The notes under the pieces were generated by a model, which saw only the letters and a list, made by a program, of their open reading frames with translations, did not search any database and was not told the origin of the DNA. This document shows positions 11,323 to 52,963 of a stretch of 64,000 bases of DNA, in pieces. A program made the translations under genes and the position numbers. Numbering within the stretch: the stretch's first letter is position 1; the number at the start of each line of letters is the position of its first letter. The stretch comes from Firmicutes bacterium CAG:582 (GTDB taxonomy: Bacteria > Bacillota_I > Bacilli_A > RF39 > UBA660): positions 1,980-65,979 of the forward strand of contig FR884183.1 in NCBI GenBank assembly GCA_000435515.1, given 5' to 3'.

Positions 11323-12357
11323 ATGAATTTATGCGAACTTTTAGAACGTGAAAATATTTATGATGTTAGATATGTTTTTGATCGTTATATGGAATTATAT
11401 CCAAATATAAATGAATATTTAAAATATTATGCTTTATTAGAAAATATTATTATAAAAGCAAATAAAAGTGACCTGTTTGCATATATTGTCGATTATCTTT
11501 TTCATGATTCTTATCAAAACGTTTATGTTAATATAAATGAAATGTTAAGGTATATAAGTATTCATCATACAGATACTCTTTTACCAACTAGTCATATAAA
11601 ATTTTATAAGAAAGTGCTAACATTAGAGTCCTTTTCGGTTGAAGAACTGTTATATTATTTTAATATTTTCAAAAAAGAAAAAATTTATTTAATGTTTTAC
11701 CATGACATTCGTAAGTTGAAAGATAAAAGTTATGATGAAATTTTAACTGATCTTACTGATTTAACTTTATTTGAACCAAATTATGAAATTAATGATATTT
11801 CAGTATATGACCTTAGACCTATTAAATACAAACTTTTAGTGAGAAGTTCAAGAAAATTTAAAAAATATTCATGTTATTATAAGTCTTATTATTCTATTAT
11901 TACTAGTATACATAATAGAACTTTTGGAAGAGAAAATGATTCTTTATCATTTGATTATGGATATCTATGTGCAGATGTAAATAAAATTCTACATGTTTCT
12001 GAAAGGGATTTATTGAGTAAATATTCGGACGAACATGACTGTGGAACACTAGCACCAAATAGGATAGTAAATTTGTATTCACTTACTGAATTTGATTCGT
12101 CATGGTCAGAAATTCAAATATTAAATTTAAAAGATACTGATAATTATAAGTGCTTAAAACCGGACTTTATAATTTCTTATAGTGAGCAAATTAAACCTAA
12201 AATTTTAAACGAAGCTCAAAGATTAGGAATACCAGTGGTTATAGTAAATAATAGGTCACTTGAATCGTTAGATAGTGATTGGCTGGAAAATGAAAAATAT
12301 AATACTTATTATGCAAATCCAGAATTTGACAAAAGTGTTAACTTTGTGTTAAGATAG
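11323..12357 (+). CDS. hypothetical protein
   Basis: 344-aa ORF with no motif I can recognise. Tyr/Asn-rich composition. Confidence 0.55.
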   Translation: MNLCELLERENIYDVRYVFDRYMELYPNINEYLKYYALLENIIIKANKSDLFAYIVDYLFHDSYQNVYVNINEMLRYISIHHTDTLLPTSHIKFYKKVLTLESFSVEELLYYFNIFKKEKIYLMFYHDIRKLKDKSYDEILTDLTDLTLFEPNYEINDISVYDLRPIKYKLLVRSSRKFKKYSCYYKSYYSIITSIHNRTFGRENDSLSFDYGYLCADVNKILHVSERDLLSKYSDEHDCGTLAPNRIVNLYSLTEFDSSWSEIQILNLKDTDNYKCLKPDFIISYSEQIKPKILNEAQRLGIPVVIVNNRSLESLDSDWLENEKYNTYYANPEFDKSVNFVLR

Positions 12358-12430: not shown

Positions 12431-12850
12431 ATGAAAGGATTTATTCTCGATTACATTAATGAAAATGAGTTTAGAAAATTAGAGAGAGCATTGAAAAAAT
12501 ATAATATGCTTGCTTTTAAAAAATTAAATTTTGAATACTACCCATCTTTACGTAAGGGAGAATTTTTAGGTGAATTGGTATCAACTGATACAAAAAAATG
12601 TACAGAAACTTATGAATTAAAGTTACCAAGTGATCATTTATTTACTCAAGTTCATGGTGAAGTAAAACTGAGATATATTGTTTATAAAGATCAAAATGTT
12701 GTTATGCTTGAAACTATTGAACCAAGGGATATTTTACTTGAGGGACATGTTGCTGAATTAACAACTTATAAAGGTGTTATGATTTCAAAGGCAAATGCTG
12801 ATAAAGATAAATTCATGGTAAACTTATTTTCTGCTATGGATCACAAATAA
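12431..12850 (+). CDS. hypothetical protein (weak RelE/ParE-like beta-core resemblance)
   Basis: 139-aa ORF with a GGGGGA RBS. The segment KLRYIVYKDQNVVMLETIEP resembles the YRIIY-x-n-V-x-I motif of RelE/ParE toxins. This is weak and judged by eye only. Confidence 0.5.
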   Translation: MKGFILDYINENEFRKLERALKKYNMLAFKKLNFEYYPSLRKGEFLGELVSTDTKKCTETYELKLPSDHLFTQVHGEVKLRYIVYKDQNVVMLETIEPRDILLEGHVAELTTYKGVMISKANADKDKFMVNLFSAMDHK

Positions 12851-12925: not shown

Positions 12926-13126
12926 TTGGTTATGGATGTATATAGAAAAAGAGAAAAAATTAAATATAATAACCAATTATTTCAAATTATTGAAAGAAAT
13001 GATAAAAAACTGGGTTTCTTGAAAATAAAATATGAAGGAGATAATGTGATTTATGAATATCCAACAGCTTATGAATTTTTACATTTAAGCAGTTTTATGA
13101 ATAAAAAAAACAGAATAAAATTCTAG
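12926..13126 (+). CDS. small hypothetical protein (66 aa)
   Basis: ORF with its own promoter and an AGAGGGGA RBS. Its stop overlaps the stop of the convergent endonuclease gene (ctag at 13123-13126). Confidence 0.4.
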   Translation: MVMDVYRKREKIKYNNQLFQIIERNDKKLGFLKIKYEGDNVIYEYPTAYEFLHLSSFMNKKNRIKF

Positions 13127-13869
13127 TTGTTTTTGGAGTCAATAAGTTTAAAGATGGAACTAATGCCATCTTTTCTTATCGCAAAAATTAGTCCCTTATT
13201 TCTGTTTTTTCCAAGTAAATTACTTGATCGATCGAATCTTAGAGAAACTGATATTCTAAGATCACCACTTTTTATAGCATCAATAAAATTTTCAAATTCT
13301 TTTAAAGTATAACAGTCAATTTGATAATATCTATAATATAAATCGTTATTTTCTTTTTTCTTACTAGCTTTTATTAGCACCATTTTTTTTACTTTTATTT
13401 CGGCTCTAGTTCTAATGGTGTCAAAATCGATATACCCAATTTTATCTATTAAAATTTTATTTTGATTATAAACATAAGTAACAATTCCATCATCAAGCAT
13501 TCTTAATTCGAAGTAGTGGTTCCCATATTCTACTGGCTTATTATACTTTAAAGCAATATTAAATATTTTTTTATCTTTATAGACTTTATCATAAATTCCA
13601 TAGTTATTTAAAATATAATCACTTTCATATTCGTGATATCCAGTGAATGTAGATGAGAACAAAGAAACTGGAAAGTTACTGAACCTAGTACTTGTCTTTA
13701 TTTCAATTTCTTTATAATCTGGGAATATGGAACTGTTAGGATTTATATTAAGAAGATATTCGAATGTAAGTCCACATGAATTATATGGATTATTATTAAT
13801 TGCTTTAACATATCCTTTAGAACTAATATCTTTAAACAATTTAATTATATCATTAAAATCCTTTTTCAT
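13123..13869 (-). CDS. MvaI/BcnI-family type II restriction endonuclease-like protein (PD-(D/E)XK)
   Basis: Collinear resemblance to MvaI/BcnI. N-terminal block NSCGLTFEYLLNINPNSSIFPDYKEIEIKT corresponds to the G-x-TFE-x-LL...PD...IEIKT catalytic region. C-terminal block GDLRISVSLRFDRS...GKNRNKGLIFAIRKD corresponds to GDIKVDIRIG...HGTAFRI. The second ATG (13869) is preceded by a perfect AAAGGAGG RBS and is preferred over 13884. Confidence 0.75.
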   Translation of the reverse strand: MKKDFNDIIKLFKDISSKGYVKAINNNPYNSCGLTFEYLLNINPNSSIFPDYKEIEIKTSTRFSNFPVSLFSSTFTGYHEYESDYILNNYGIYDKVYKDKKIFNIALKYNKPVEYGNHYFELRMLDDGIVTYVYNQNKILIDKIGYIDFDTIRTRAEIKVKKMVLIKASKKKENNDLYYRYYQIDCYTLKEFENFIDAIKSGDLRISVSLRFDRSSNLLGKNRNKGLIFAIRKDGISSIFKLIDSKNN

Positions 13870-13971
13870 GATTCCTCCTTTCATAAGTTTGTTATTATAG
13901 ATGGTTGATCTTGCAGTTTTTGTCGAAAAAAGAAATTATTTATAAAAAATATATTTTAGAATAAAAAGTAC

Positions 13972-14594: not shown

Positions 14595-16073
14595 TTGATG
14601 AAAAATATTTTAACTATAGGAAAAAAAGGAATTACAAGCGGAGACTTTTTTGCTAGTGTTGCTCCTGATTATTGTAATCTCGTTATGTTTATTGATTTAA
14701 AAAATGATGATTTACTTGAAAAACTATCTCGTTATGATTTATTAATAAAAGCTGTAATGGAGGAATCATTTCTTGAACCTCAAGAAGCAAAAGACTTCTT
14801 AGCAACACTATTTTCATATGAAAACATTATAGATGCTTTCGATTACGTAGATTTGGATGCCGGTTTAGGAGACACAACTATTCCTAAAAATTTATTAGCA
14901 AAAAACTCTTGGATTAAATCAAAAAAGATAATTCTATCAAGTGATGAAATTTCTATTACTGATGCAGTTAAACTTGCTAATGAATATTCAGAATATAAAA
15001 ATCAACTAGTTTTTAAATTGAAGGGCAACAAAAAGTATGTTTCATATGAAGATGTTTTATCAATGAGTAAATTAATGGATAGCTACGTAGATTCAATTAA
15101 ATCATGTAATTTAACAAGTAAGCTTGAATTAGTCATGTTATCTTATGACATTGTTAGAAATCTTGTATATAGAAGCTTTGAGGAAACACCAAGTGAAGAA
15201 ATAACTATATTTGAAAAAATTTATAATACGAATTCTGCTCAGTTAAACTTTTCTCTATTGTTTTCTGAACTTTTAAACTATTTAGGCATTAACTCCAAAA
15301 TTGTAAATCATTATTCTGAAATAAATCGTAACAAGAAACTTTCTAGAGTTTCAGCTTATATAAAAGATGATAAATATAATGTTGATGGTATATATGTTTT
15401 TGATCCATTTCTTGACTGTATGAAGGGATTAAAAGAAAAAAAATATCCTACTTTATATAATTATTTTTTAAAAACAACTGATGAAGTAGAAAAGTGTGAT
15501 AAGGAAAAATTTCCATGGGAGAAATTTGAATCTAGAGAAGAAATTCAAGAGGGTAATATTAAAGGACTATCGATTTCGGAGATTGAATCTTTAGGAACTT
15601 CAAAATGGAAACATATTGAATACTTATATGAATTGGTTACTGGAGATACTTTTGATTTTGTTAAAAATGTTCTTATCAGTTCTGAAAAAGAAAAGAAATC
15701 CTTTATAGATAAAATATATGAATTTGAAAAAATGATGAATAAGCCTATTGATACAAAAACTAGATTAAGTCTTTTTGATAATGTTAGAAGAGCTGAATAT
15801 TATTATAATATAAACTCTTTGGATTATAATGTGGAAGATATGCTAGCTGTAATGGAATCAAGTGGTTGGAATATTGATGAATCAGAAATAACTCCAAAAG
15901 ACTTAAGCAAAAGAGAAAAAGAACTTTTAGGTTTATTTGGCGGAGTTAGTTATAAAGTAATCGGACTTCGTAAATTTATTAAAGAACAAAATATTGAAAA
16001 AAAGGTTAGTGGAGTAAGATTAACTAAAACGTTAAAAAAATATCTAGAGAATAAACAAAATGACTGTATGTAA
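14595..16073 (+). CDS. hypothetical protein (possible degenerate transglutaminase-like core)
   Basis: 492-aa ORF (ATG at 14598 is the likely start; AAAGGGGA RBS). The segment SAQLNFSLLFSELLNYLGINSKIVNHYS...RVSAYIKDD...GIYVFDP has the spacing of a transglutaminase core but lacks the Cys and His. By eye only. Confidence 0.6.
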   Translation: MMKNILTIGKKGITSGDFFASVAPDYCNLVMFIDLKNDDLLEKLSRYDLLIKAVMEESFLEPQEAKDFLATLFSYENIIDAFDYVDLDAGLGDTTIPKNLLAKNSWIKSKKIILSSDEISITDAVKLANEYSEYKNQLVFKLKGNKKYVSYEDVLSMSKLMDSYVDSIKSCNLTSKLELVMLSYDIVRNLVYRSFEETPSEEITIFEKIYNTNSAQLNFSLLFSELLNYLGINSKIVNHYSEINRNKKLSRVSAYIKDDKYNVDGIYVFDPFLDCMKGLKEKKYPTLYNYFLKTTDEVEKCDKEKFPWEKFESREEIQEGNIKGLSISEIESLGTSKWKHIEYLYELVTGDTFDFVKNVLISSEKEKKSFIDKIYEFEKMMNKPIDTKTRLSLFDNVRRAEYYYNINSLDYNVEDMLAVMESSGWNIDESEITPKDLSKREKELLGLFGGVSYKVIGLRKFIKEQNIEKKVSGVRLTKTLKKYLENKQNDCM

Positions 16074-16089
16074 AGTACAGTTTTTTTTA
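16063..16089 (+). terminator. rho-independent terminator
   Basis: Stem actgta / tacagt (16063-16068 / 16076-16081) followed by a T8 run. Confidence 0.7.
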
Positions 16090-16179
16090 TTCTTTTTTCA
16101 TATAATATATTAAGTTATATCTTGTAAATTTACTAAGATATTGATATATTTTTATTGTAAGATAGTGGAGGTGGGTAGT

Positions 16180-16923
16180 ATGGTCCATTTAACTTACGTA
16201 GAAAATCCATTTGACAAAGATTTTTTTACTTCTTTATCAAAATATGCATACGAAAAGAGTTTTTATGATTGCATTAACAAGCGTTTTGTTGATGAAGAAG
16301 CTTTTAAAAATTTGGAGTATGGATTCCGTATGTATATGCTTACTGGTGATAGTAATGAATGGATAGGTTTTGTTTTGTTTTCAAATGAAAATAGGGTTAA
16401 AAGTTTAAGGTATCATGCATATAATTACTTTTTGGAATGTTTAGATAGGCAAAAAAATTTAATTCCAGAGAAAGTATCAGAAGAAATGATTAAGATAATA
16501 ACTAACCAAAAAGAACAAAATATATTATTTAGTACAATTGATAAATGTTTTGAATATTTATCTACAATTGTTGGATCATCAATTATCAGTTTAGAAAAAC
16601 AAGCATATAATGAGAAATTGGATTCTTTATTAAATGATTTTGCTAATTATATGTATTTAGATACCTTTATATCTCTTCCAAAAGATGAGAAAGTAAGAAT
16701 TCGTTTAGAAAATGAACAAAGTAATTTAGATGAAAATGAATTAGTTGAAAAAAAATATTATGGTTTTATTCAGGAAACTTTGGGCTTGGTTGAAAACTTA
16801 ATACAAAACTCTTTTAATGGAATACATATTATTTTAAAACAAGAGGGAACAAATATATTTTTAGTAGAAACTAGTAGCTTCGTTGAGAATCATGAACTTA
16901 CGAAAGTTTTAATAAATCAATAG
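16180..16923 (+). CDS. hypothetical protein
   Basis: ATG 16180 is preceded by a GGAGGTGGG RBS (the track start TTG 16141 is less likely). 247 aa with no recognisable motif. Confidence 0.55.
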   Translation: MVHLTYVENPFDKDFFTSLSKYAYEKSFYDCINKRFVDEEAFKNLEYGFRMYMLTGDSNEWIGFVLFSNENRVKSLRYHAYNYFLECLDRQKNLIPEKVSEEMIKIITNQKEQNILFSTIDKCFEYLSTIVGSSIISLEKQAYNEKLDSLLNDFANYMYLDTFISLPKDEKVRIRLENEQSNLDENELVEKKYYGFIQETLGLVENLIQNSFNGIHIILKQEGTNIFLVETSSFVENHELTKVLINQ

Positions 16924-16924
16924 A

Positions 16925-16953
16925 AATAATAGATGAATGTCTATTATTTTTTT
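16925..16953 (+). terminator. rho-independent terminator
   Basis: Stem aataataga / tctattatt (16925-16933 / 16940-16948) followed by a T-run. Confidence 0.65.
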
Positions 16954-16964
16954 GAAAAAATACA

Positions 16965-17003
16965 CGAACAAATGTTTACAAATAAGAACAAATGTTTTAT
17001 AAT
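16965..17003 (+). promoter_or_regulatory. promoter (TTTACA-17-TATAAT) overlapped by two tandem LexA/Cheo-box-like operators
   Basis: Box 1 cGAACaaatGTTTa at 16965-16978 and box 2 aGAACaaatGTTTt at 16985-16998, with starts 20 bp apart. -35 tttaca at 16975-16980 and -10 tataat at 16998-17003. The Firmicute SOS box consensus is GAAC-N4-GTT(C/T). Confidence 0.6.
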
Positions 17004-17021
17004 TTAATTGGTGATGAATTT

Positions 17022-18233
17022 ATGGATATAAAAGAAAAATTGCATATTCTTGCCGATAGTGCTAAATATGATGCATCGTGTTCATCAAGTGGAAGTGCTA
17101 GAGATGGTGATGGAAATGGAAATACTAATAGAAGTGGAATCTGTCATTCTTTTGCTTCTGATGGAAGGTGTATTTCTCTTTTAAAGATACTTATGACTAA
17201 TGCTTGTATTTTTGATTGCAGATATTGTCCAAATAGAAAGAGCAATGATGTTAAAAGGGCGATTTTTACTCCAACTGAAATATGTGAAATTACAATGAAT
17301 TTTTATAAAAGAAATTATATAGAGGGGTTGTTTTTAAGCTCAGGAATTATTAAAAGTCCTGATTATACAACAAATTTATTAATTGAGACAATCTATATGC
17401 TTAGAAATAAGTATAAGTTTAATGGATACATTCATGTAAAAGCAATACCTGGTACAAATGAATCTTTATTAAAAAAACTTGGATCTATGGTTGATAGAAT
17501 GAGTGCTAATATAGAGCTACCTACGGAAAATGGGCTTAAGTTATTAGCTCCTAACAAAAGTGAGGATAAAGTTACTAAAATAATGAAGTATGTTAAAGAA
17601 AATCGAAGTAAGCATTATGTTCCTGCCGGTCAAAGCACTCAAATGATTATAGGAGCAACTAGTGAAACTGATTTTGATATTATGACCAAAAGCAAAAAGT
17701 TATACGATGATCATAAATTAAAAAGAGTGTTTTATTCGGCATATATTCCTGTTAATAAAGATAATACGCTGCCAGCTATAAGTATTCCACCTTTAAAAAG
17801 AGAAAATAGACTTTATCAAGCTGATTTTCTTTTAAGATTTTATAATTTTAAAGTTGATGATATATTGGACAAAGAAAATCCTAATTTTAATCTATTATTG
17901 GATCCCAAAGCTGCGTGGGCTTTAAAAAATCTTCATTTATTTCCAAAAGAAATTAATACATGTTCTTATAATGAATTACTTCAAATACCAGGAGTGGGTG
18001 TAAAGGGAGCAAAGAAAATATATAGTTCAAGGAAGTATTTTAAAATAAAGTTTGAAGATTTGAAAAATATGAATATTGTTATGAAAAGAGCAAAATATTT
18101 TATTACTTGTGATGGTAAATATTTTATGGATTCGGCTAATTTTAAAAGAAACATAATAGAACAGTCATTATTGCTTGAAGATACAATAGAAAATAGAAGA
18201 CAAGTTAGTCAGTTGAGTTTATTCAATGAATAA
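17022..18233 (+). CDS. putative DNA modification/repair radical SAM protein (TIGR03916-like)
   Basis: N-terminus LADSAKYDASCSSSGS...GICHSF..DGRCISLLKILMTNACIFDCRYCPNR (CxxxCxxC radical SAM cluster). C-terminal helix-hairpin-helix LLQIPGVGVKGAKKI. ATG 17022 is preferred because track start 16992 lies inside the promoter. Confidence 0.9.
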   Translation: MDIKEKLHILADSAKYDASCSSSGSARDGDGNGNTNRSGICHSFASDGRCISLLKILMTNACIFDCRYCPNRKSNDVKRAIFTPTEICEITMNFYKRNYIEGLFLSSGIIKSPDYTTNLLIETIYMLRNKYKFNGYIHVKAIPGTNESLLKKLGSMVDRMSANIELPTENGLKLLAPNKSEDKVTKIMKYVKENRSKHYVPAGQSTQMIIGATSETDFDIMTKSKKLYDDHKLKRVFYSAYIPVNKDNTLPAISIPPLKRENRLYQADFLLRFYNFKVDDILDKENPNFNLLLDPKAAWALKNLHLFPKEINTCSYNELLQIPGVGVKGAKKIYSSRKYFKIKFEDLKNMNIVMKRAKYFITCDGKYFMDSANFKRNIIEQSLLLEDTIENRRQVSQLSLFNE

Positions 18234-18975
18234 TAAAGTTTATGTTTATAATGATAATTTCTTAAGTCTTTTAGCTTTAATTGTAATTTTGATAAGAAAG
18301 AAAACTATACCAAAAGATATAAAACCATGTAACTTTGAATTTGGTTTATTTGATGAAGTAGAAGAACTCTTATTGCCCGAAAAAGAAGAAACTATTAATT
18401 ATATTATAAAAAATATTGGGTATGATAATTTTAATATGATATTTAGGCTTTATCTATCGGTGTTTAAAGATAAAGAATTATTTATTTTCTATTATTGTTT
18501 GTATTCCTTAAAGTACAAAGAAACAACTAGGTTTATGCGTAACAACAAATGGGTGAATGAAACTTTAAAGCAAAGTCTGTATGTATCAAGAGAAAATCAT
18601 AAGTTTAAAGGATTCACTAGATTCAAAAAAATGAATAATGAAATTTATTATGCTGAAATCAATCCGACTAATAATATTCTTCCATTACTATCCAATCATT
18701 TCAGGGCTCGTTTAAAAAGTGAATACTGGATTATTAAGGATGTTAATAGGAATTTATATAGTTTATATGATAAGAAAAGTTTTATTATTGTTTCTGGTGA
18801 TGAATTCAAGATAAATGATTTTAATTTGAGTGATGATGAGGATAAGTTCTTAAGTCTATGGAAAGAATTTTATAATACTGTTGGAATAAAGGAAAGAAAA
18901 AATGATAGGTGTAGAATGAACTTCATGCCTAAAAAATATTGGAAATATATTATGGAAGTGAGTGATGAGTTATGA
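18226..18975 (+). CDS. DUF4130 family protein (TIGR03915-like probable DNA metabolism protein), without a UDG-like domain
   Basis: Characteristic blocks HKFKGFTRFKKM..EIYYAEINPTNNILPLLSNHFRARL..EYWIIKDVNR and C-terminal ERKNDRCRMNFMPKKYWKYIMEV. Overlaps the radical SAM gene by 8 nt. Confidence 0.85.
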   Translation: MNNKVYVYNDNFLSLLALIVILIRKKTIPKDIKPCNFEFGLFDEVEELLLPEKEETINYIIKNIGYDNFNMIFRLYLSVFKDKELFIFYYCLYSLKYKETTRFMRNNKWVNETLKQSLYVSRENHKFKGFTRFKKMNNEIYYAEINPTNNILPLLSNHFRARLKSEYWIIKDVNRNLYSLYDKKSFIIVSGDEFKINDFNLSDDEDKFLSLWKEFYNTVGIKERKNDRCRMNFMPKKYWKYIMEVSDEL

Positions 18976-20495
18976 AAAAGGTAGTTATAGGAGAAGAACT
19001 TGATAAAATAATTAAAAAATCTTTGGATATATTATGCGATACTGTTGGATCAACGCTTGGGCCAAAGGGAAATAATTCGATTATCTCTAGTTCGTCTTTA
19101 CCAGCTTTTGTAACAGATGATGGTGTAACTTTAGCTAGAAATATTGAAAGTGATGATGTATGTGTTAATTCTGTTTTAGAAATATTAAAAGAAGCATCAA
19201 TTAGAACTGATGAAATAGTTGGGGATGGAACAACTACAGCTCTTGTTTTATTAAAAGCTATAATGAGTAATGCTAATGACTTAATACGTTGTGGGATGAG
19301 TAGATATGAAGTGAAAAAAAATTTAGAAAACGAGGAAAAAATGATAGAAGATTTGATAATAAAAGAATCTTTTAAACCTGATGATAATGCTTTAAAAAAT
19401 ATAGCTACTACTAGTTCAAAGTCTGAAAAAATAGGAGAAACTATTTACCAAGTTGTAAAAAAAATAAGAAACATTGCTGGAGTTACAATAACAACTAGTA
19501 ATAAAGAAGAAACATGTGTTAAATATTTTAAAGGTTATGAATTTGACACTAACTTAGCAAGTCCTTTTTTCTTTAAAGGAACTTCAAGTATAAAATTAAA
19601 AAATCCGTATGTTCTAGTTACTTCTGAAAGTATATATGATATTGAAAAATTGAGTAATTTAATAAATAAGAGTTTTGTTGATAAAAGAAATCTATTGATA
19701 TTTGCTGCTGATTATGATGAAGATGTAATAAATCAGGTATTATCGTTTAACTATGATAATGATTTAAAAATATATTTGCTAAAAAATCCTGAATTTGGAA
19801 AAAGGCAATATCTTTTAATGAGTGATTTATTGGAAATATGTAATTGTAAGGAATATAAGAATCAATTTAGTTATGATAATGTTGGAGTAGTTAAAGAGAT
19901 TGTTATCAATAAAGATAAAACTTATGTTTATTTTGATAATAATTTAGCAGCTTATATTGAAGAAAATAAAAGTAATTTAGAATATATCAATGATGAATTT
20001 GACATCAACTACTATGAAAGACGTATTTCAATGCTCTCTGATGGACTTGCAACTATTGAGGTAGGCGGAAAAACTATAAGTGAAGCAAGAGAAAACAAAA
20101 TGCATTATGATGATGCAATTCATGCGACTTATTCAGCTTTAGAAGGTGTAAACATAGGAGCGGGATATACCTATTTAAAAATATCATCAACTTTAGAAGA
20201 TAATTGTATTTTAAAAAATGCTTTATGTGTTCCTTTTAGACAAATTTTAAAAAATGCTGGATTAGATGTAAATACGATTGAGAAAAATGTAACATTTGAT
20301 TTTAAGAAGATATATAATGTCAAAGTTGATGACTATGAAGGTATTGATTCTCCTTCGGTTTTGGATTCGACGAAAGTTCTAATTCAGTCATTAAAAACGG
20401 CTGTATCCATTGCTAATATTTTACTCAGCACAGGTAGTTTAATAATTAATGAGCAAATAAAAAATATTGATATAGATCATGATATCAATATTTAG
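18972..20495 (+). CDS. divergent Cpn60/GroEL-family chaperonin-like protein (no GroES partner, no GGM tail)
   Basis: Aligns by eye with the GroEL equatorial domain: TLGPKGNN (GroEL TLGPKGRN), DDGVTLARNIESDD (KDGVTVAKEIELED), VGDGTTTALVLL (AGDGTTTATVLA), later EGVNIGAGYTYL (EEGIV-x-GGG). 507 aa. Its ATG overlaps the upstream TGA (ATGA at 18972-18975). Confidence 0.8.
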   Translation: MKKVVIGEELDKIIKKSLDILCDTVGSTLGPKGNNSIISSSSLPAFVTDDGVTLARNIESDDVCVNSVLEILKEASIRTDEIVGDGTTTALVLLKAIMSNANDLIRCGMSRYEVKKNLENEEKMIEDLIIKESFKPDDNALKNIATTSSKSEKIGETIYQVVKKIRNIAGVTITTSNKEETCVKYFKGYEFDTNLASPFFFKGTSSIKLKNPYVLVTSESIYDIEKLSNLINKSFVDKRNLLIFAADYDEDVINQVLSFNYDNDLKIYLLKNPEFGKRQYLLMSDLLEICNCKEYKNQFSYDNVGVVKEIVINKDKTYVYFDNNLAAYIEENKSNLEYINDEFDINYYERRISMLSDGLATIEVGGKTISEARENKMHYDDAIHATYSALEGVNIGAGYTYLKISSTLEDNCILKNALCVPFRQILKNAGLDVNTIEKNVTFDFKKIYNVKVDDYEGIDSPSVLDSTKVLIQSLKTAVSIANILLSTGSLIINEQIKNIDIDHDINI

Positions 20496-20496
20496 T

Positions 20497-21672
20497 TTAC
20501 TTTTTTCTAAAGAAAATAAATTTAACTATTTTAAAAATAAATAAAACAATTAATAAATTTATAATTACTAATAGATAAAAATTTATTTTTACATCTTTTA
20601 ATAATATGTCTTCTTCATAGATAGGATTATCTTTATAAGTTATAGTTACTTTTCCAATTTGTTTATTGTTGTCCAAAAATGTTATAGATGTTTTTCCGTT
20701 ATAATTAACCTTTATATCATCTTTATTATAATCATTTGGTAAATAAGTTAATGCATCTTTACTTAAATGAACATCGTATTTAGGTATATTAGAAAAATTT
20801 ACAGGAATTGTTTTTATTATATCAGTTGATTTAACTGTTGTTTGATTATTATAATTTTTATCCATAAAATTTATTATATTTAAATTATCCTTTAAATTAT
20901 AGTAATTTCCATAAATAAATTCAGCATTTGTTGAAATGAAAATAAATTCGTGATTGTTACTTTCAAATATTGAGGATATACATAATCCAGCTTTATTGGT
21001 GTAGCCAGTCTTGCTACCAATGATTCTTGAAACATCCAGTTTCATTAAATTATTGTATTTTTTTACTGTAGCATCTACTACTAAACCATTTGATAAAGTA
21101 TAACTTTTAGTTGTATAGATTGTTTTAAATGTTTCATTTTTTAAAGCATATTGTAACATTTTCAATAAATCACTTACTGTGCTATAGTGGTTATCAATGT
21201 CAAGACCGGTAACATTTACAAAATTAGAGCTTTCCATTCCAATTTTCTTTGCTAAAGTGTTCATATCATTTACGAAATTATTAATGCTTCCACTTAATGA
21301 ATAGGCAAGTGCTTGAGTGGCATCAGCTCCAGACGGAAGAATAGATGCATACAATAAATCTTTATAAGTTAATTTATCTCCGATTTTTAATCCAGCAAGT
21401 GAAGCATCATATTTTATATTTGAAAGCATTTCACTGGTAATAGTTACATAATCATCTAAATTATTTATTTTTTCAATGGCAGTTATGGTTGTCATAATCT
21501 TTGTAAGACTTGCTATATTTGTTCTTTCTTGGATATTTTTCTCGTAGATCATCTTGTCATCAGTTAAGTCATATAAACAGTAATTTTTAGAATATAGTGT
21601 TGGATCATCTAAGGCAAATACATTTATAATAAAAGTAAAGAAACATAAGATAAATAAAACTATTTTTTTCAT
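20497..21672 (-). CDS. D-alanyl-D-alanine carboxypeptidase (peptidase S11, PBP5-like) with C-terminal membrane anchor
   Basis: Signal peptide, SxxK motif ASLTKIMT, KTG motif SKTGYT, C-terminal hydrophobic helix. Confidence 0.88.
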   Translation of the reverse strand: MKKIVLFILCFFTFIINVFALDDPTLYSKNYCLYDLTDDKMIYEKNIQERTNIASLTKIMTTITAIEKINNLDDYVTITSEMLSNIKYDASLAGLKIGDKLTYKDLLYASILPSGADATQALAYSLSGSINNFVNDMNTLAKKIGMESSNFVNVTGLDIDNHYSTVSDLLKMLQYALKNETFKTIYTTKSYTLSNGLVVDATVKKYNNLMKLDVSRIIGSKTGYTNKAGLCISSIFESNNHEFIFISTNAEFIYGNYYNLKDNLNIINFMDKNYNNQTTVKSTDIIKTIPVNFSNIPKYDVHLSKDALTYLPNDYNKDDIKVNYNGKTSITFLDNNKQIGKVTITYKDNPIYEEDILLKDVKINFYLLVIINLLIVLFIFKIVKFIFFRKK

Positions 21673-21812
21673 AAAACCACTTCCAGTATGAAAATTATAT
21701 CAAATATGTCAGTGTAAGTGTATAAATTCCTTGATTTTAAACTAAAAGTAGATTGAATTATAATAAAAATATTGAATTATCTCGAAAAAATTATAAAATG
21801 CAGGTAAAAAAT

Positions 21813-21868: not shown

Positions 21869-23422
21869 ATGAAGAGAAATAAATTAATGACATTTGTGTT
21901 TATGCTTGTTGTATTATTATTTGGAGGAATTGCTTCTGTTTCGGCAGCAACAACACTTCCAGATAATGTTACTTCTGATAATTTAAGAGAGGTTGAATAT
22001 ATAAAAAACTTCCCAGTAATTATCAAAAAAACAAATCGTGGATATGTTTATTGCTTAAACATGTCTCATACTTATGCAGCTGGAATAACATTCAATAAAA
22101 CTGGTGAAGTTGCTGTAGGATATAATTACATTTTAAATAATTTACCAAATACAGGAGATGCAGATAAAGATTTCTATATTGCTCAAATGGCAGTTTGGTA
22201 TTATGAAGATTATTTAAACAACAACAATTTTAATTTAGTACCAGAGGTAAAAAAATATATTGTACGTCATAAAGATACTGAAGAAGTAAGTAAAGCAATT
22301 TATAATTTATATGAAGGTGCAAAAAACTATAAAGAACCAGTTGCTAAATTAGAAATTAGTCCAAGAGATATTACATTTACAAAAGATGGTGAATATTTTG
22401 TTTCAAATGAAATCAAAATAAACACAGCTAATTTAAATGGAAACCTAAGTTATTCATTAACAGGTTCTCCAGCAGGATCAAAAATCGTTAAAAGCGGTGA
22501 AGGAATAAGAGTAAAAATTCCTATAGATAAGATTGGAAACAATAAACAAATAACTGTTACATTAAATGTTGGTTCAACATATAAATCTCAAAGAGGTTAT
22601 TATTATTTCTATAATGATAATTATCAAAAAGTTTTATATAATGAATTACTTGATAAAAATGTAAGTATTCAAGATTCAATTAAAATGGTAGTAAGAAACA
22701 AAACTGAATTTGAAGTTGATATCAGTAAAAGTGATATTACTCAATCTAAAGAGATTCCTGGAGCAACATTAGTAGTTAAAGATAAAACAGGAAAAACATT
22801 ATATAATTGGATTTCTACAACTGAAGTTAAAAAAATTATTTTAACTGAAGGGGAATATAGTTTAAGTGAAACTATTGCACCAGTTGGTTATAAATTAAGT
22901 ACAACTACAATCGAATTTAAAGTAGATGCTAACGGAAGCGTTTATGTTAAAAATGAAAAAGGTAATTATGTTGCTGTAGATAAAGTAGTTATGATCAATG
23001 TATTAAAGGATGTAGTAACTATTGCTAAAAAAGATTCTAAAACAGATGTTTTAGTAGCAGGAGCAACATTAGTAATTAAAAATAAAGACGGAAACGTTGT
23101 AAAAGAATTTACAACAACTAATGAATATTATCAATTAACTATGGATGCTGGAACTTATACAATTGAAGAAAAAAGTGCACCAGCTGGTTATATTAAAAGT
23201 AATGAAATAATAACATTTGAATTACTTGATAATGGAACATTAAAAATTAAGGATAAAAATGGGGATTTTATCGAAAGCAATTTAGTAACATTCTATAATA
23301 CTAAAGGGGAAGAAGTACCTGTTCCAGCAACAGCAGCTTCTAGTACACTTTTAATTATTGGTGGTTTAGTCTTGATTATAGGTGGAGCTTACTGTGTTAG
23401 AAAAACTATCAAAGAATGCTAA
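21869..23422 (+). CDS. cell-surface adhesin: N-terminal thioester (TQXA-type) domain plus two SpaA/CnaB-like prealbumin-fold repeats; non-canonical sorting signal
   Basis: Signal peptide. Cys context GYVYCLNMSH and Gln context FYIAQMAVWYYED (TQxA(I/V)W-like). Two repeats: IPGATLVVKDKTGK...YSLSETIAPVGYKL and VAGATLVIKNKDGN...YTIEEKSAPAGYIK. C-terminus is PVPATAASS + hydrophobic helix + RKTIKEC. Confidence 0.8.
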   Translation: MKRNKLMTFVFMLVVLLFGGIASVSAATTLPDNVTSDNLREVEYIKNFPVIIKKTNRGYVYCLNMSHTYAAGITFNKTGEVAVGYNYILNNLPNTGDADKDFYIAQMAVWYYEDYLNNNNFNLVPEVKKYIVRHKDTEEVSKAIYNLYEGAKNYKEPVAKLEISPRDITFTKDGEYFVSNEIKINTANLNGNLSYSLTGSPAGSKIVKSGEGIRVKIPIDKIGNNKQITVTLNVGSTYKSQRGYYYFYNDNYQKVLYNELLDKNVSIQDSIKMVVRNKTEFEVDISKSDITQSKEIPGATLVVKDKTGKTLYNWISTTEVKKIILTEGEYSLSETIAPVGYKLSTTTIEFKVDANGSVYVKNEKGNYVAVDKVVMINVLKDVVTIAKKDSKTDVLVAGATLVIKNKDGNVVKEFTTTNEYYQLTMDAGTYTIEEKSAPAGYIKSNEIITFELLDNGTLKIKDKNGDFIESNLVTFYNTKGEEVPVPATAASSTLLIIGGLVLIIGGAYCVRKTIKEC

Positions 23423-24008
23423 GGTAACCCTAGGCATTCTTTTACTTTTCTTAGGTATTAGTTGCTTATTGTTTACTTATTTCAAAACAATTAAATCGAA
23501 TATATTCAATGAAAAAAATCTTAAATACTTTGAAGAAGTCGATATAGCAGAAACTATTGAAGAAGTAGTTGATGAAACTGTACCTGAAGAAACTACAACA
23601 CCAGTAATAAATTACAATTATATAGGTTACTTAGATATCCCTAAAATCAATTTAAAAAGAGGATTTGTATCCTTGAACTCAAAATACAATAGTATTAGTT
23701 ATAATGTTATGCTTATCAAGGGAAGCAGTATGCCAGATGTAAAAAATGGTAATCTTATACTTGCTGCTCATAGAGGTAACTCGTCGGTTTCATTTTTTGA
23801 TAAGTTATATAAATTAAATCTTGGGGATGAAGCAAATGTTACATATAATGATAAAATATATACTTATAAATTAGTTAATACTTATCTAGAAGCAAAAGAT
23901 GGAACAATCGCGATATATCGTGATGAAAATAAAACTACACTTACTCTTATCACTTGTACAAGAGGAGATAAAAAAACTCAAACAGTATTTATATTTGAGT
24001 TAGTATAA
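23382..24008 (+). CDS. sortase (class D-like by substrate motif; class assignment tentative)
   Basis: N-terminal TM helix, catalytic His context ILAAHRG, Cys context TLITCT, late Arg. The start is GTG 23382 or GTG 23394 (AGGTGG RBS upstream of the latter). Overlaps the end of the adhesin gene. Confidence 0.85.
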   Translation: MELTVLEKLSKNAKVTLGILLLFLGISCLLFTYFKTIKSNIFNEKNLKYFEEVDIAETIEEVVDETVPEETTTPVINYNYIGYLDIPKINLKRGFVSLNSKYNSISYNVMLIKGSSMPDVKNGNLILAAHRGNSSVSFFDKLYKLNLGDEANVTYNDKIYTYKLVNTYLEAKDGTIAIYRDENKTTLTLITCTRGDKKTQTVFIFELV

Positions 24009-50884: not shown

Positions 50885-51767
50885 AATTTTAGGTAAAAGT
50901 ATTAGCAACGCTTTTAAAAGTATTGTTCGTAATTTCTCACTTAGTTTAGCTTCTATATCATGTACAGCAATTACTTTAATTTTGGTGTCAATTGCCTTGC
51001 TTGCAACATATAATGTTAACTCGATGACAAAGAATATTGAAGGATCGATGACGATAATCGCGTTTATTGATGAAAATGCGACTGATGAAGAAATAGAAAA
51101 TGTTAAAAATACGATATATAGTATAGAAAATGTTGATAAGGATAAAACGATCTTTCGCAGTAAAGATGAAATAAAAAATGATTTATTAAACGATGAAAAT
51201 ATTAAAGAAACATTATCCGTTTTTGATGAAAATCCTTTACTTTCAACAATGGTAGTAAATGTAAAAAACGTAAGAAAGATTACTTCTACTGCAAACGAAA
51301 TAAAAAGTGTTGATAAAGTTAAATATGTAAAATATGGAGAATCTATTGTTAATGAGGTTTTGAATGCATTTGATTTTGCAAGATATGCTTGTATTGTAGC
51401 CGTTATAGCTTTGGTGTTGGTAACTATATTCTTAAATGAAAATACAATTAAAATCACAATTTTTTCGAGAAAAAATGAAATTGGTATTATGAGGTTAGTT
51501 GGTACAAGTAATATTGTTATTAAACTTCCATTTATATTTGAAGGATTTATTCTTGGACTTATAGGAGCTATTTTACCAATCGTGATTACAATATTTGGAT
51601 ATTCATACTTTTATGATGTTTTAGGTGGAAAAATATATACTGATTTATTAACTCTTGTAAAACCAAGTGATATTGTTTATATATCAAGTTTCGTTTTGGC
51701 AATTATTGGTTCTTTAGTTGGTGTATTTGGTTCAATAAAAGCTGTAAGGAGATATTTGAAGATATGA
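50871..51767 (+). CDS. ftsX: cell division permease FtsX
   Basis: 298 aa. TM1, an extracellular domain of about 100 aa, and three C-terminal TM helices with the conserved EIGIMRLVG block. Overlaps ftsE by 14 nt. Confidence 0.85.
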   Translation: MRLFRILGKSISNAFKSIVRNFSLSLASISCTAITLILVSIALLATYNVNSMTKNIEGSMTIIAFIDENATDEEIENVKNTIYSIENVDKDKTIFRSKDEIKNDLLNDENIKETLSVFDENPLLSTMVVNVKNVRKITSTANEIKSVDKVKYVKYGESIVNEVLNAFDFARYACIVAVIALVLVTIFLNENTIKITIFSRKNEIGIMRLVGTSNIVIKLPFIFEGFILGLIGAILPIVITIFGYSYFYDVLGGKIYTDLLTLVKPSDIVYISSFVLAIIGSLVGVFGSIKAVRRYLKI

Positions 51768-52963
51768 TGAAAAAAGTAGTAATTATAATGTGTGCGGCTT
51801 TAATTTTGGTTACTGGAACAAGTACATATGCTGCTAGTAAAGCTCGTACCTTAAGGGAACTTCGTGCAGAACTTGCCTCTTGGAAGAAAGAACAAGCAGC
51901 AAATGAGTCTAAAAAAACTGCTACTAAAAATGAAATTAGCAGTGCGAAGGCATCCGTTTCTAGCAAGCAAACAGAAATATCCAATAATCAACAAAAAATA
52001 GCTAGTTCTCTTGCTGAATCAGAACAACTTGGAAAAGATATTGAAAATGGTAAAACTGAGCTTGAAAAAATAGTAAAAAATTATCAAGTTTCTAAAGGAG
52101 ATAATGTTTACTTAGAATACATATTTAAAGCAACAAGTTATGAAGATTTAATTTATAGATATGCAGTTATGGAGCAACTTATGGATTATCAAAAGAATAA
52201 GATAGACGAGTGGAAAGGTAAAATTGAATATAATACTCAATTGAAAATTGATCTTGAAAATAGGGAAGTTGAACTTAGTAATCAAATAGATAGTTTAGCA
52301 AATGATATAAAATCATTGAATAACAAACTATCAGATTATTTAGACGTTACAATGGATATTAAGGATGAAATTGCATCAACTCAAGAGTTAATTAATTATT
52401 ATGAAAAGATTGGTTGTAAAGAAGATGAGGACCTTGAAAAGTGTGTAAGTGTAAAAGGAGATACTGGTTTCTTACGACCTTTAAATAGAGGAACAACGAC
52501 TTCATATTTTGGATATAGAACTCATCCTGTTACAGGAGTTAAAAATAAGTTTCATTCTGGAATAGATATTGGAGGAAACAAAGAGGGAACAAATGTTTAT
52601 AGTGTAGCAAATGGAATGGTTTCTAAAATCGTTAGAAAGGCTAGTTGTGGTGGAAATCAAGTGTATATTCAACACTTAATAAATGGTAAACAATATACAT
52701 CTTGTTATATGCATCTTTTAACTATAAAGGTTAGTGTTGGTGATAAAGTTACTAATCAAACCATTGTTGGAACTGTAGGTGGAGGATCAGGAACTCCATG
52801 GGATTCTTGTTCAACTGGTGCTCATTTGCATTTTGGATTGGGTACTGGTTGGTATGGAACAACTTATACTTCGTATTCAAAATGGGTTGCTAATCTTGTT
52901 GATCCAAAAGGATATTTGAAATTTCCTGATTTGAGAAAGTATTTCTATACGAGAGTATTATAA
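51764..52963 (+). CDS. M23-family peptidoglycan hydrolase with N-terminal coiled coil (EnvC/PcsB-type FtsEX partner)
   Basis: Signal peptide, a long heptad-rich region, and an M23 domain with HSGIDIG and GAHLHFG. ATGA overlap with ftsX. Confidence 0.88.
   Translation: MMKKVVIIMCAALILVTGTSTYAASKARTLRELRAELASWKKEQAANESKKTATKNEISSAKASVSSKQTEISNNQQKIASSLAESEQLGKDIENGKTELEKIVKNYQVSKGDNVYLEYIFKATSYEDLIYRYAVMEQLMDYQKNKIDEWKGKIEYNTQLKIDLENREVELSNQIDSLANDIKSLNNKLSDYLDVTMDIKDEIASTQELINYYEKIGCKEDEDLEKCVSVKGDTGFLRPLNRGTTTSYFGYRTHPVTGVKNKFHSGIDIGGNKEGTNVYSVANGMVSKIVRKASCGGNQVYIQHLINGKQYTSCYMHLLTIKVSVGDKVTNQTIVGTVGGGSGTPWDSCSTGAHLHFGLGTGWYGTTYTSYSKWVANLVDPKGYLKFPDLRKYFYTRVL

Follow-up and report, generated by a model that had tools for sequence, protein, structure and literature searches.

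A diverged Cpn60-like protein encoded in strict linkage with a radical SAM–DUF4130 pair in uncultured Bacilli

We analyzed a stretch of 64,000 nucleotides from Firmicutes bacterium CAG:582 (contig FR884183.1), referred to here as the window, which is AT-rich (~27% G+C) and carries nearly all of its coding on the plus strand. It contains a unit of three genes, encoding a radical S-adenosylmethionine (rSAM) protein, a DUF4130 protein, and a diverged relative of the chaperonin GroEL/Cpn60 (here Cpn60-like):

17022–18233, plus strand: rSAM gene (gene 1), assigned by its match to the TIGR03916 profile; isoelectric point (pI) of the product 9.3
18226–18975, plus strand: DUF4130 gene (gene 2), assigned by its matches to the TIGR03915 and PF13566 profiles; 249 amino acids, pI 9.0
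18972–20495, plus strand: Cpn60-like gene (gene 3), assigned by its match to PF00118 and by its AlphaFold2 (AF2) fold; 507 amino acids, pI 4.9

In the list of open reading frames (ORFs), the unit comprises exactly three genes (16992/17022–18233, 18226–18975, and 18972–20495), all on the plus strand. An earlier note on this DNA described them as chained by overlaps, and both overlaps are present in the sequence: the rSAM and DUF4130 genes share 8 nucleotides, ATGAATAA, at 18226–18233 (context TTCAATGAATAATAAA), and the stop codon of the DUF4130 gene overlaps the start codon of the Cpn60-like gene in an ATGA at 18972–18975 (context GAGTTATGAAAAAG). The Cpn60-like gene ends at 20495, one base ahead of the stop of a D-Ala-D-Ala carboxypeptidase gene that runs toward it (20497–21672, minus strand); the unit therefore consists of these three genes only.

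The first two proteins belong to a recognized pair. The rSAM protein scores 593.7 bits against TIGR03916 (cut-off 343.5), covering model positions 1–415, and its CxxxCxxC cluster motif reads CIFDCRYC. Weak HHH_3 and HHH matches at residues 320–358 place a helix-hairpin-helix (HhH) element at its C-terminus. The DUF4130 protein scores 188.6 bits against TIGR03915 (cut-off 112.25) and 144.2 bits against PF13566, the only domain that it matches. Both identities agree with those assigned beforehand from the letters alone. In the families' names and descriptions (TIGR03915/TIGR03916), the third slot of the cassette is elsewhere taken by a family-4 uracil-DNA glycosylase (UDG)-like domain. A fused UDG domain is absent from the DUF4130 protein, as its 249 residues leave no room for one, and Pfam and NCBIfam profile searches revealed no UDG-like domain in the three-gene unit, as the earlier note had also stated. 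A tblastn search with a family-4 UDG query gave one weak match, ~5 kb from the operon, in one of ~95 loci.

The third protein is a highly diverged member of the Cpn60 family. It matches PF00118 with 128.6 bits (cut-off 34.3, E = 4e-37), and its translation contains the equatorial motifs TLGPKGNN, DDGVTLARNIESDD, VGDGTTTALVLL, and EGVNIGAGYTYL; the description of a 507-residue protein with group I chaperonin motifs thus holds. Every curated GroEL cut-off, however, is failed, consistent with the divergence noted before: the scores are 275.5 bits against NF009487 (cut-off 352), 271.1 against NF000592 (397), and 248.8 against TIGR02348 (582.1). Despite these sub-threshold scores, the protein aligns with the GroEL models from end to end. 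A second family member, from locus L003, likewise falls short (332.7 bits versus 352). Against solved structures, the best matches are ordinary GroELs at ~187–199 bits, and the protein also matches the PHROG ‘chaperonin groEL’ family. The Cpn60-like protein is probably derived from GroEL.

To locate functional residues, 75 family members were aligned to Escherichia coli GroEL, using a reference sequence whose numbering was checked by D87 in the motif GDGTTT. Identity to E. coli GroEL is 25–33% across the family and ~29% for the window protein. The nucleotide site (T30, L31, G32, P33, G35, D52, G53, D87–T91, D398, G414, G416, N479, and D495) is invariant or nearly so, and the glycines of the hinges (G192, G375, and G410) are retained. 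K51 is replaced by asparagine or aspartate. With R197 replaced by threonine or serine and a variable E386, the family lacks the T-state salt bridge. The inter-ring contact residues K105, A109, E434, R452, S463, and V464 are not conserved, and GroEL residues 304–310, 427–433, and 437–440 are deleted. In the apical domain, Y203, F204, and L237 are kept, while L259 and V263 are still hydrophobic. Of the features that the earlier note proposed to examine, then, the ATPase residues are conserved, the ring contacts are not, and the apical set is half kept.

The C-terminus differs from that of GroEL as well. Neither the window protein nor the family alignment contains a GGM-repeat tail, confirming an observation first made on the window protein. 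Instead, the family has a tail of 15–25 residues of the form ...INE-x(8-14)-[DE][YF]NE[IL], which is disordered in the structural model (residues 496–507 of the window protein). The window protein ends in INEQIKNIDIDHDINI, and the end motif of the family is usually [DE]-[YF]-N-E-[IL]. With a pI of 4.9, the Cpn60-like protein is acidic, like GroEL, compared with 9.3 and 9.0 for its rSAM and DUF4130 partners; its intermediate domain has a pI of 8.0, compared with 4.6 in E. coli GroEL. The ratio of nonsynonymous to synonymous substitution rates (dN/dS) is 0.11–0.26 over 14 close pairs, indicating purifying selection, although looser than that on the rSAM protein (dN/dS 0.04–0.14, with an identity of ~70% across loci).

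An AF2 model built from a 65-sequence alignment has three domains, with a mean predicted local distance difference test (pLDDT) score of 90.1 and a predicted template modeling (pTM) score of 0.84. Foldseek aligned it to GroEL/Hsp60 chains with template modeling (TM) scores of 0.86–0.88 over ~517 columns, so that the Cpn60 fold of the monomer, proposed for checking by the earlier note, is confidently predicted (TM 0.87). The model superposes best on GroES-bound, open conformers, which may be a modeling preference. No nucleic-acid-binding domain or insertion was found in it; the model is that of a plain GroEL subunit. One further position stands out in the same alignment: C22 (LDILCDTV), in equatorial helix A, is invariant, and E. 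coli GroEL has alanine there.

The linkage of the three genes is conserved far beyond this genome. A word-indexed search recovered a family of Cpn60-like proteins of 500–520 amino acids with ~35–62% identity, almost all unnamed. Two distant members looked at first, with 39 and 41% identity and each from a different NCBI metagenome-assembled genome (MAG), are encoded with rSAM and DUF4130 genes through 4-nt overlaps, in otherwise unrelated surroundings. One genome per GTDB species was then scanned, which identified 288 genomes with a Cpn60-like relative, and the best 80 of these 288 loci were examined. They come from MAGs labeled as uncultured Bacilli, ‘Tenericutes’, or Erysipelotrichaceae, from human, rabbit, goat, and mouse gut. 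By tblastn, a DUF4130 gene lies directly upstream of the Cpn60-like gene in 79 of the 79 loci that have any upstream sequence, and an rSAM gene lies upstream of DUF4130, on the same strand, wherever the contig extends far enough. Since the arrangement recurs in every species-level locus of the 80 where the contig allows a view, it is far beyond chance. The adjacency in relatives, on which the earlier note had asked for a survey, is thus kept in all of the 80 loci reaching far enough, and in four more distant lineages described below.

Complete copies of all three genes are present in 69 loci. At the rSAM/DUF4130 junction, 61 of the 69 have overlaps of 8 (35 loci), 4 (17), or 1 nt (9). The 4-nt overlap between the DUF4130 and Cpn60-like genes is found in 37 of the 69; seven loci have gaps of 22–40 nt, and most of the remainder have overlaps of 8 to 35 nt under automatic start choice. 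Pairwise distances of the three proteins correlate with r = 0.75–0.80, as expected for co-inheritance, and the median pairwise identity is 74% for rSAM, 52% for DUF4130, and 46% for the Cpn60-like protein. In an all-against-all census of neighboring ORFs, the only universal genes are these three. The next real neighbor is a LigD-like non-homologous end joining (NHEJ) protein, in 17 of 81 loci. NHEJ genes (LigD-like phosphoesterase/primase-polymerase, Ku, and ATP-dependent ligase) occur within ~6 kb of the operon in about one fifth of the genomes, for example at L005:13714–15108, at L003:12759–15822, and in L023, which suggests a loose DNA-repair neighborhood.

Gene 1 departs from the standard form in a few loci. 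In the lineage of L003, L004, and L072 (GCA_965647905.1, GCA_964018015.1, and MGBC100111), it has no radical-SAM core. The example at L003:5936–7258 encodes 440 amino acids with hydrophobic segments, a CxxC...CxxC zinc-ribbon-like stretch, and an unrelated middle; it matches TIGR03916 over its last ~80 residues (349–429) only, corresponding to the C-terminal HhH region, so that a membrane/zinc-ribbon-like N-terminus stands in place of the rSAM core. At L086:3214–4422 the rSAM gene is split into two ORFs (289 and 94 amino acids), yet tblastn aligns it as one piece, and in L077 the best rSAM match spans residues 189–401 only. These last two irregularities may be frameshifts or assembly errors.

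To define the boundary of the family, we carried out an exhaustive profile search of 1.84 billion representatives. It returned ~57 full-length clusters scoring at least 470 bits, a few intermediates, and a general GroEL plateau at ~355–385 bits. Gene context cleanly separates the intermediates into four DUF4130-linked lineages on the one side and groES-linked GroELs and a phage GroEL on the other:

P0208, 430 bits: rSAM and DUF4130 genes upstream
P0215, 393 bits: rSAM and DUF4130 genes upstream; contig with CotJ spore-coat genes
P0219, 385 bits: rSAM and DUF4130 genes upstream
P0248, 365 bits: last 17 codons of a DUF4130 gene upstream (...FMPKKYWKNITEMENRL*), with an ATGA overlap
P0212 and its relatives P0300 and P0303, 410 bits: Cpn10 gene upstream, an ordinary groES-groEL arrangement
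P0213, 404 bits: Cpn10 gene upstream, an ordinary groES-groEL arrangement
P0247, 367 bits: among phage genes

In a neighbor-joining (NJ) tree, the core family is monophyletic in 200 of 200 bootstraps, on a long stem. A single origin of all operon-linked Cpn60s was considered and not recovered: the four outlying linked lineages are placed with 2–49 of 200 bootstraps in this crude tree. The sequences are compatible with either one ancient recruitment or several for the DUF4130-linked Cpn60s.

Two further kinds of chaperonin emerged from the same search. P0209 and P0210, which are G+C-rich, are ~1080 amino acids long and contain two complete Cpn60 units fused head to tail, with GDGTTT in each. 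P0247 (L153:2631–4217) is a diverged Cpn60 of 528 amino acids encoded among phage genes for an ATP-dependent DNA ligase, dNMP kinase, ThyX, and Gp157; it has no adjoining Cpn10 gene and is another GroES-less phage chaperonin.

No co-chaperonin accompanies the unit. A tblastn search of the window and 85 loci (~0.9 Mb) found no groES (Cpn10) gene, extending to relatives what had been noted for the DNA beside the third gene, and no canonical groEL was found in the window or the loci. A bait search with the nearest groES-linked GroELs from the profile search (P0212 and P0213) found no assembly that they share with operon-bearing contigs.

The region upstream of the unit contains a compact set of putative control elements:

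16922–16951, plus strand: intrinsic-terminator-like hairpin with a 13-bp AT-rich stem followed by a U run (dG −10 kcal/mol, z = −4.5)
16965–16978, plus strand: operator box 1, CGAACAAATGTTTA, of the Gram-positive LexA (Cheo-box) type CGAAC-N4-GTTYG, overlapping the −35 element
16975–17003, plus strand: sigma-70-type promoter, with TTTACA (16975–16980), a 17-nt spacer, and TATAAT (16998–17003)
16985–16998, plus strand: operator box 2, AGAACAAATGTTTT, in the promoter spacer, abutting the −10 hexamer
17010–17015, plus strand: ribosome-binding site (RBS) GGTGAT of the rSAM gene, identified in the sequence and conserved in nearly all loci

Judging from its sequence, the hairpin ends the unrelated gene 16141–16923 and thereby insulates the operon; none of 200 shuffled sequences folds equally well. 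The promoter has 11 of 12 matches and is the best site within 16000–21800. The true start of the rSAM gene is 17022, as in the earlier note, and not the ATG at 16992. The latter falls within both operator box 2 and the −10 hexamer; the former follows the RBS, and both start and RBS are conserved in ~70 loci. The consensus of the Gram-positive LexA (Cheo) box is CGAAC-N4-GTTCG, and the two boxes found here, which are nearly identical, fit it. These boxes, overlapping the −35 element and the spacer, bear out the LexA-like operators placed ahead of the unit by the earlier note, with LexA binding itself a prediction.

The main box is conserved together with the genes. Upstream regions of the 69 loci, aligned at the rSAM start codon, share the palindrome (C/A)(G/A)AAC-N4-GTT(T/C)(G/A), centered at about −55, over a −35-like TTGAC/TTTAC, with TATAAT and GGTGAT downstream. 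In 54 of the 69 loci its strict core, AAC-N4-GTT, is found between −57 and −53, compared with 0.017 expected by chance per window. Degenerate matches to the box in ~850 kb of loci number 75, and 40 of them immediately precede the rSAM gene. Only the nearest relatives of the window (L006–L009) have the second box, and the outlying lineages L086 and L093 bear similar boxes. An SOS regulon could not be assembled from the ~80 loci: outside the rSAM promoter the box is essentially absent, apart from one extra match before a RarA-like gene, and the LigD-like genes in the loci have no operator box. A third exact copy of the 12-nt operator core in the window, GAACAAATGTTT at 52587–52598 on the plus strand, lies within a PcsB-like M23 peptidase gene (51764–52963) and is most likely a chance match, since it is intragenic and 2.65 such matches are expected per window.

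We infer LexA control of the operon from the fit to the consensus, the position of the box on the promoter, and the literature on homologous rSAM/TIGR03915 pairs. Comparative genomics has associated the pair with the SOS response (PMC3765255), LexA control has been predicted for the homologous pair CAC3343-3344 in Clostridium acetobutylicum (PMC3828012), and the homologous pair in Acinetobacter belongs to the DdaA DNA-damage regulon (PMC12392091). The operon is thus probably inducible by DNA damage (SOS). The Cpn60-like gene shows no sign of an independent promoter of the kind that, by the earlier note, would speak against its reading: the sole strong promoter and the conserved box precede the rSAM gene, and the 4-nt overlap described above joins gene 3 to gene 2. 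From the geometry of these sequences, the unit would be both translationally coupled and LexA-regulated.

Compared with the rSAM-DUF4130-UDG cassette, the unit is alike in that its first two genes are full-length, score above the family cut-offs, and are adjacent, overlapping, and situated behind a LexA-type box; this arrangement agrees with the published SOS and DNA-damage links and with the AlphaFold3 (AF3) model of the two proteins, which predicts a tight DUF4130-rSAM complex with a narrow nucleic-acid channel (bioRxiv 10.64898/2026.08.19.745780). It differs in that no UDG-like domain is fused or adjacent, and in that its constant third gene encodes a Cpn60-fold ATPase. With housekeeping GroEL, the window protein shares the three-domain fold, the ATP-site residues, the hinge glycines, and the acidic pI. 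Unlike it, the protein scores below the cut-offs, is ~29% identical to E. coli GroEL, has neither groES nor a GGM tail, carries K51N and R197T with a variable E386, unconserved inter-ring contacts, and deletions of 304–310 and 427–440, and is linked in an operon to DNA-repair genes behind an SOS-type box.

Further parallels are specialized GroEL paralogs such as Mycobacterium tuberculosis GroEL1/Cpn60.1 and chlamydial GroEL2/3, and GroES-independent phage GroELs such as gp146 of phage EL; these are likewise diverged, non-housekeeping or client-restricted, and in some cases free of a co-chaperonin. M. tuberculosis GroEL1 is a nucleoid-associated, DNA-binding GroEL paralog (PMC2731897). The window protein, in contrast, matches the chlamydial GroEL2/3 models very weakly (53–69 bits versus a cut-off of 600), as it does phage EL gp146 (84 bits), and in the literature searched none of these paralogs is reported to be operon-fused to a radical-SAM/DUF4130 pair. 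The full-text literature searched on the pair and on GroEL paralogs contained no chaperonin linked to the rSAM/DUF4130 module, in line with the earlier note, which knew of no such link. What is new here is therefore the strictly linked chaperonin-family third component; the SOS-linked rSAM/DUF4130 cassette is known but uncharacterized. Two other affiliations were considered and rejected. None of the three proteins has a PADLOC match that would indicate an anti-phage defense system. A phage origin finds no match either: relatives in IMG/VR are all at most 31% identical, none adjoins an rSAM or DUF4130 gene, and no family member occurs in viral contigs.

We propose that the Cpn60-like protein is a dedicated, GroES-independent, chaperonin-type ATPase partner of the rSAM-DUF4130 complex, a reading to which we give roughly an even chance. 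In the undamaged cell, a LexA-type repressor on the box or boxes over the −35 element and spacer would block the promoter. Upon DNA damage, derepression would yield one transcript, and the overlapping stop and start codons would deliver the three proteins together. The rSAM-DUF4130 complex would then act on nucleic acid. The Cpn60-like protein, filling the slot of the cassette that elsewhere is family-4 UDG-like, is expected to hydrolyze ATP without GroES, given that the whole GroEL catalytic set is invariant. Charge complementarity could bring this acidic protein (pI 4.9) together with its two basic partners (pI 9.0–9.3). Most likely, it would fold, assemble, or hold active the aggregation-prone Fe-S TIM-barrel enzyme and DUF4130, or recycle the complex. 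Gene context and the predicted fold suggest, in this way, both a physical interaction and a chaperone or remodeler role.

Several observations weigh against this proposal. Members of the L003/L004/L072 lineage keep intact, overlapping DUF4130 and Cpn60-like genes despite the loss of the rSAM core, which makes folding of the rSAM enzyme too narrow to be the whole role. The apical domain is the least conserved part of the Cpn60-like protein and carries the substitutions Y199 to L/I, L234 to S/A, and V264 to S; a different binding mode could underlie the partly kept surface or the low apical conservation. Finally, neither a lexA gene (in the window or the sampled loci) nor a second SOS gene with an operator box (in the sampled DNA) was found, so that LexA is proposed as the regulator from the resemblance of the box to the consensus.

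A direct, non-folding role on DNA, with the Cpn60-like protein as an integral working subunit of the repair machine instead of a folding helper, appears unlikely to us. Such a protein might be an ATP-driven remodeler or a DNA-associated ring that functionally substitutes for the UDG-like module, loading and unloading rSAM-DUF4130 at lesions or extracting stalled or cross-linked proteins from DNA. The slot that it occupies, UDG-like elsewhere with no UDG here, would fit this role, as would the persistence of DUF4130 and Cpn60-like genes after rSAM-core loss, the C-terminal [DE]-[YF]-N-E-[IL] motif, which could dock on a partner, the basic intermediate domain (pI 8.0 versus 4.6), and the precedent of the DNA-binding M. 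tuberculosis GroEL1. Against this role, an overall pI of 4.9 is what one expects from a chaperonin rather than from a DNA-binding protein, the model shows an ordinary GroEL subunit in which no nucleic-acid-binding domain or insertion was found, and the retained apical residues Y203, F204, and L237 fit polypeptide binding. In its most far-reaching form, in which a chaperonin-fold ring ATPase is an obligatory, GroES-independent subunit of a DNA-damage machine, replaces the UDG-like module, and remodels, loads, or extracts but does not fold, this role is about as unlikely.

It is still less probable, in our judgment, that the protein is carried on an SOS operon as a general-purpose chaperonin for broad quality control under DNA-damage stress, free of any specific tie to its two neighbors and perhaps the last Cpn60 of these reduced genomes. 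The intact ATPase site, complete fold, and purifying selection would suit such a protein, and its hosts are uncultured AT-rich Bacilli MAGs, several of them labeled ‘Tenericutes’ or ‘Mycoplasma’; groESL loss is known in Mollicutes. Yet no groES was found in any locus, and the protein has lost the GGM tail, allosteric switch, and ring contacts, which speaks against a canonical folding cage. With a median identity of 46%, it evolves much faster than its rSAM neighbor (74%), and conservation is normally far higher in housekeeping GroEL. Nor would a general chaperonin have reason to keep its start codon overlapping the DUF4130 stop in hundreds of species and in several deep lineages, including a CotJ-associated one, and it would be odd for an SOS-type repressor to control the sole housekeeping chaperonin of a cell. 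Were the protein the only Cpn60 homolog of its genome, it would still not look like a housekeeping one, because it has no groES, fails the GroEL cut-offs, is ~29% identical to E. coli GroEL, and lies behind an SOS-type operator. At least in the P0215 lineage, the protein is likely a paralog, since CotJ genes lie nearby and endospore formers carry groESL. The idea that the adjacency is meaningless, and gene 3 a decaying groEL duplicate downstream of the pair, could appeal to the extreme divergence and the failure of all curated GroEL thresholds; it is effectively refuted by dN/dS values of 0.11–0.26, intact ORFs in at least 75 genomes, invariant catalytic residues, and linkage and overlap conserved in all surveyed loci.

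Whether or not a UDG-like domain accompanies it, the rSAM/DUF4130 pair occurs widely and is associated with DNA damage in several phyla, and it is mechanistically uncharacterized. That one large clade (at least 288 species-level genomes and several deeper lineages) has swapped in or added a strictly linked chaperonin-type ATPase offers a new handle on the function of this repair module. It is also a clear addition to the short list of GroEL paralogs outside general proteostasis, here with one identifiable partner module. Databases label family members as ‘chaperonin GroEL’ or ‘hypothetical protein’, and both labels miss what they are. In carriers that have no groESL, the protein would be a chaperonin kept only for a single client system; in carriers with groESL, it would be a dedicated paralog. 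Should the protein instead be a direct subunit, it would be the first chaperonin to work directly in DNA repair, and the rSAM/DUF4130 system would need an energy-driven third component.

The surroundings of the operon in the window contain further genes. Immediately 5′ of it, two plus-strand ORFs of 492 and 260 amino acids (14595–16073 and 16141–16923) match nothing in Pfam or NCBIfam; the terminator hairpin stands between them and the operon, and the 492-residue ORF recurs in 6 of 81 loci only. Further upstream, on the minority strand, a gene at 13123–13884 (minus strand) encodes a type II restriction endonuclease of the MvaI/BcnI family (PF15515, E = 4e-28). No methyltransferase was identified, and the small plus-strand ORFs beside it (11323–12357 and 12431–12850) have no Pfam match. 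Downstream, a sortase-dependent surface-protein cluster at 21869–24008 (plus strand) comprises a gene for a 517-residue SpaA-type pilin or adhesin with a C-terminal membrane anchor, which is overlapped on its 3′ side by a sortase gene (Pfam names are those of the identical contig L001).

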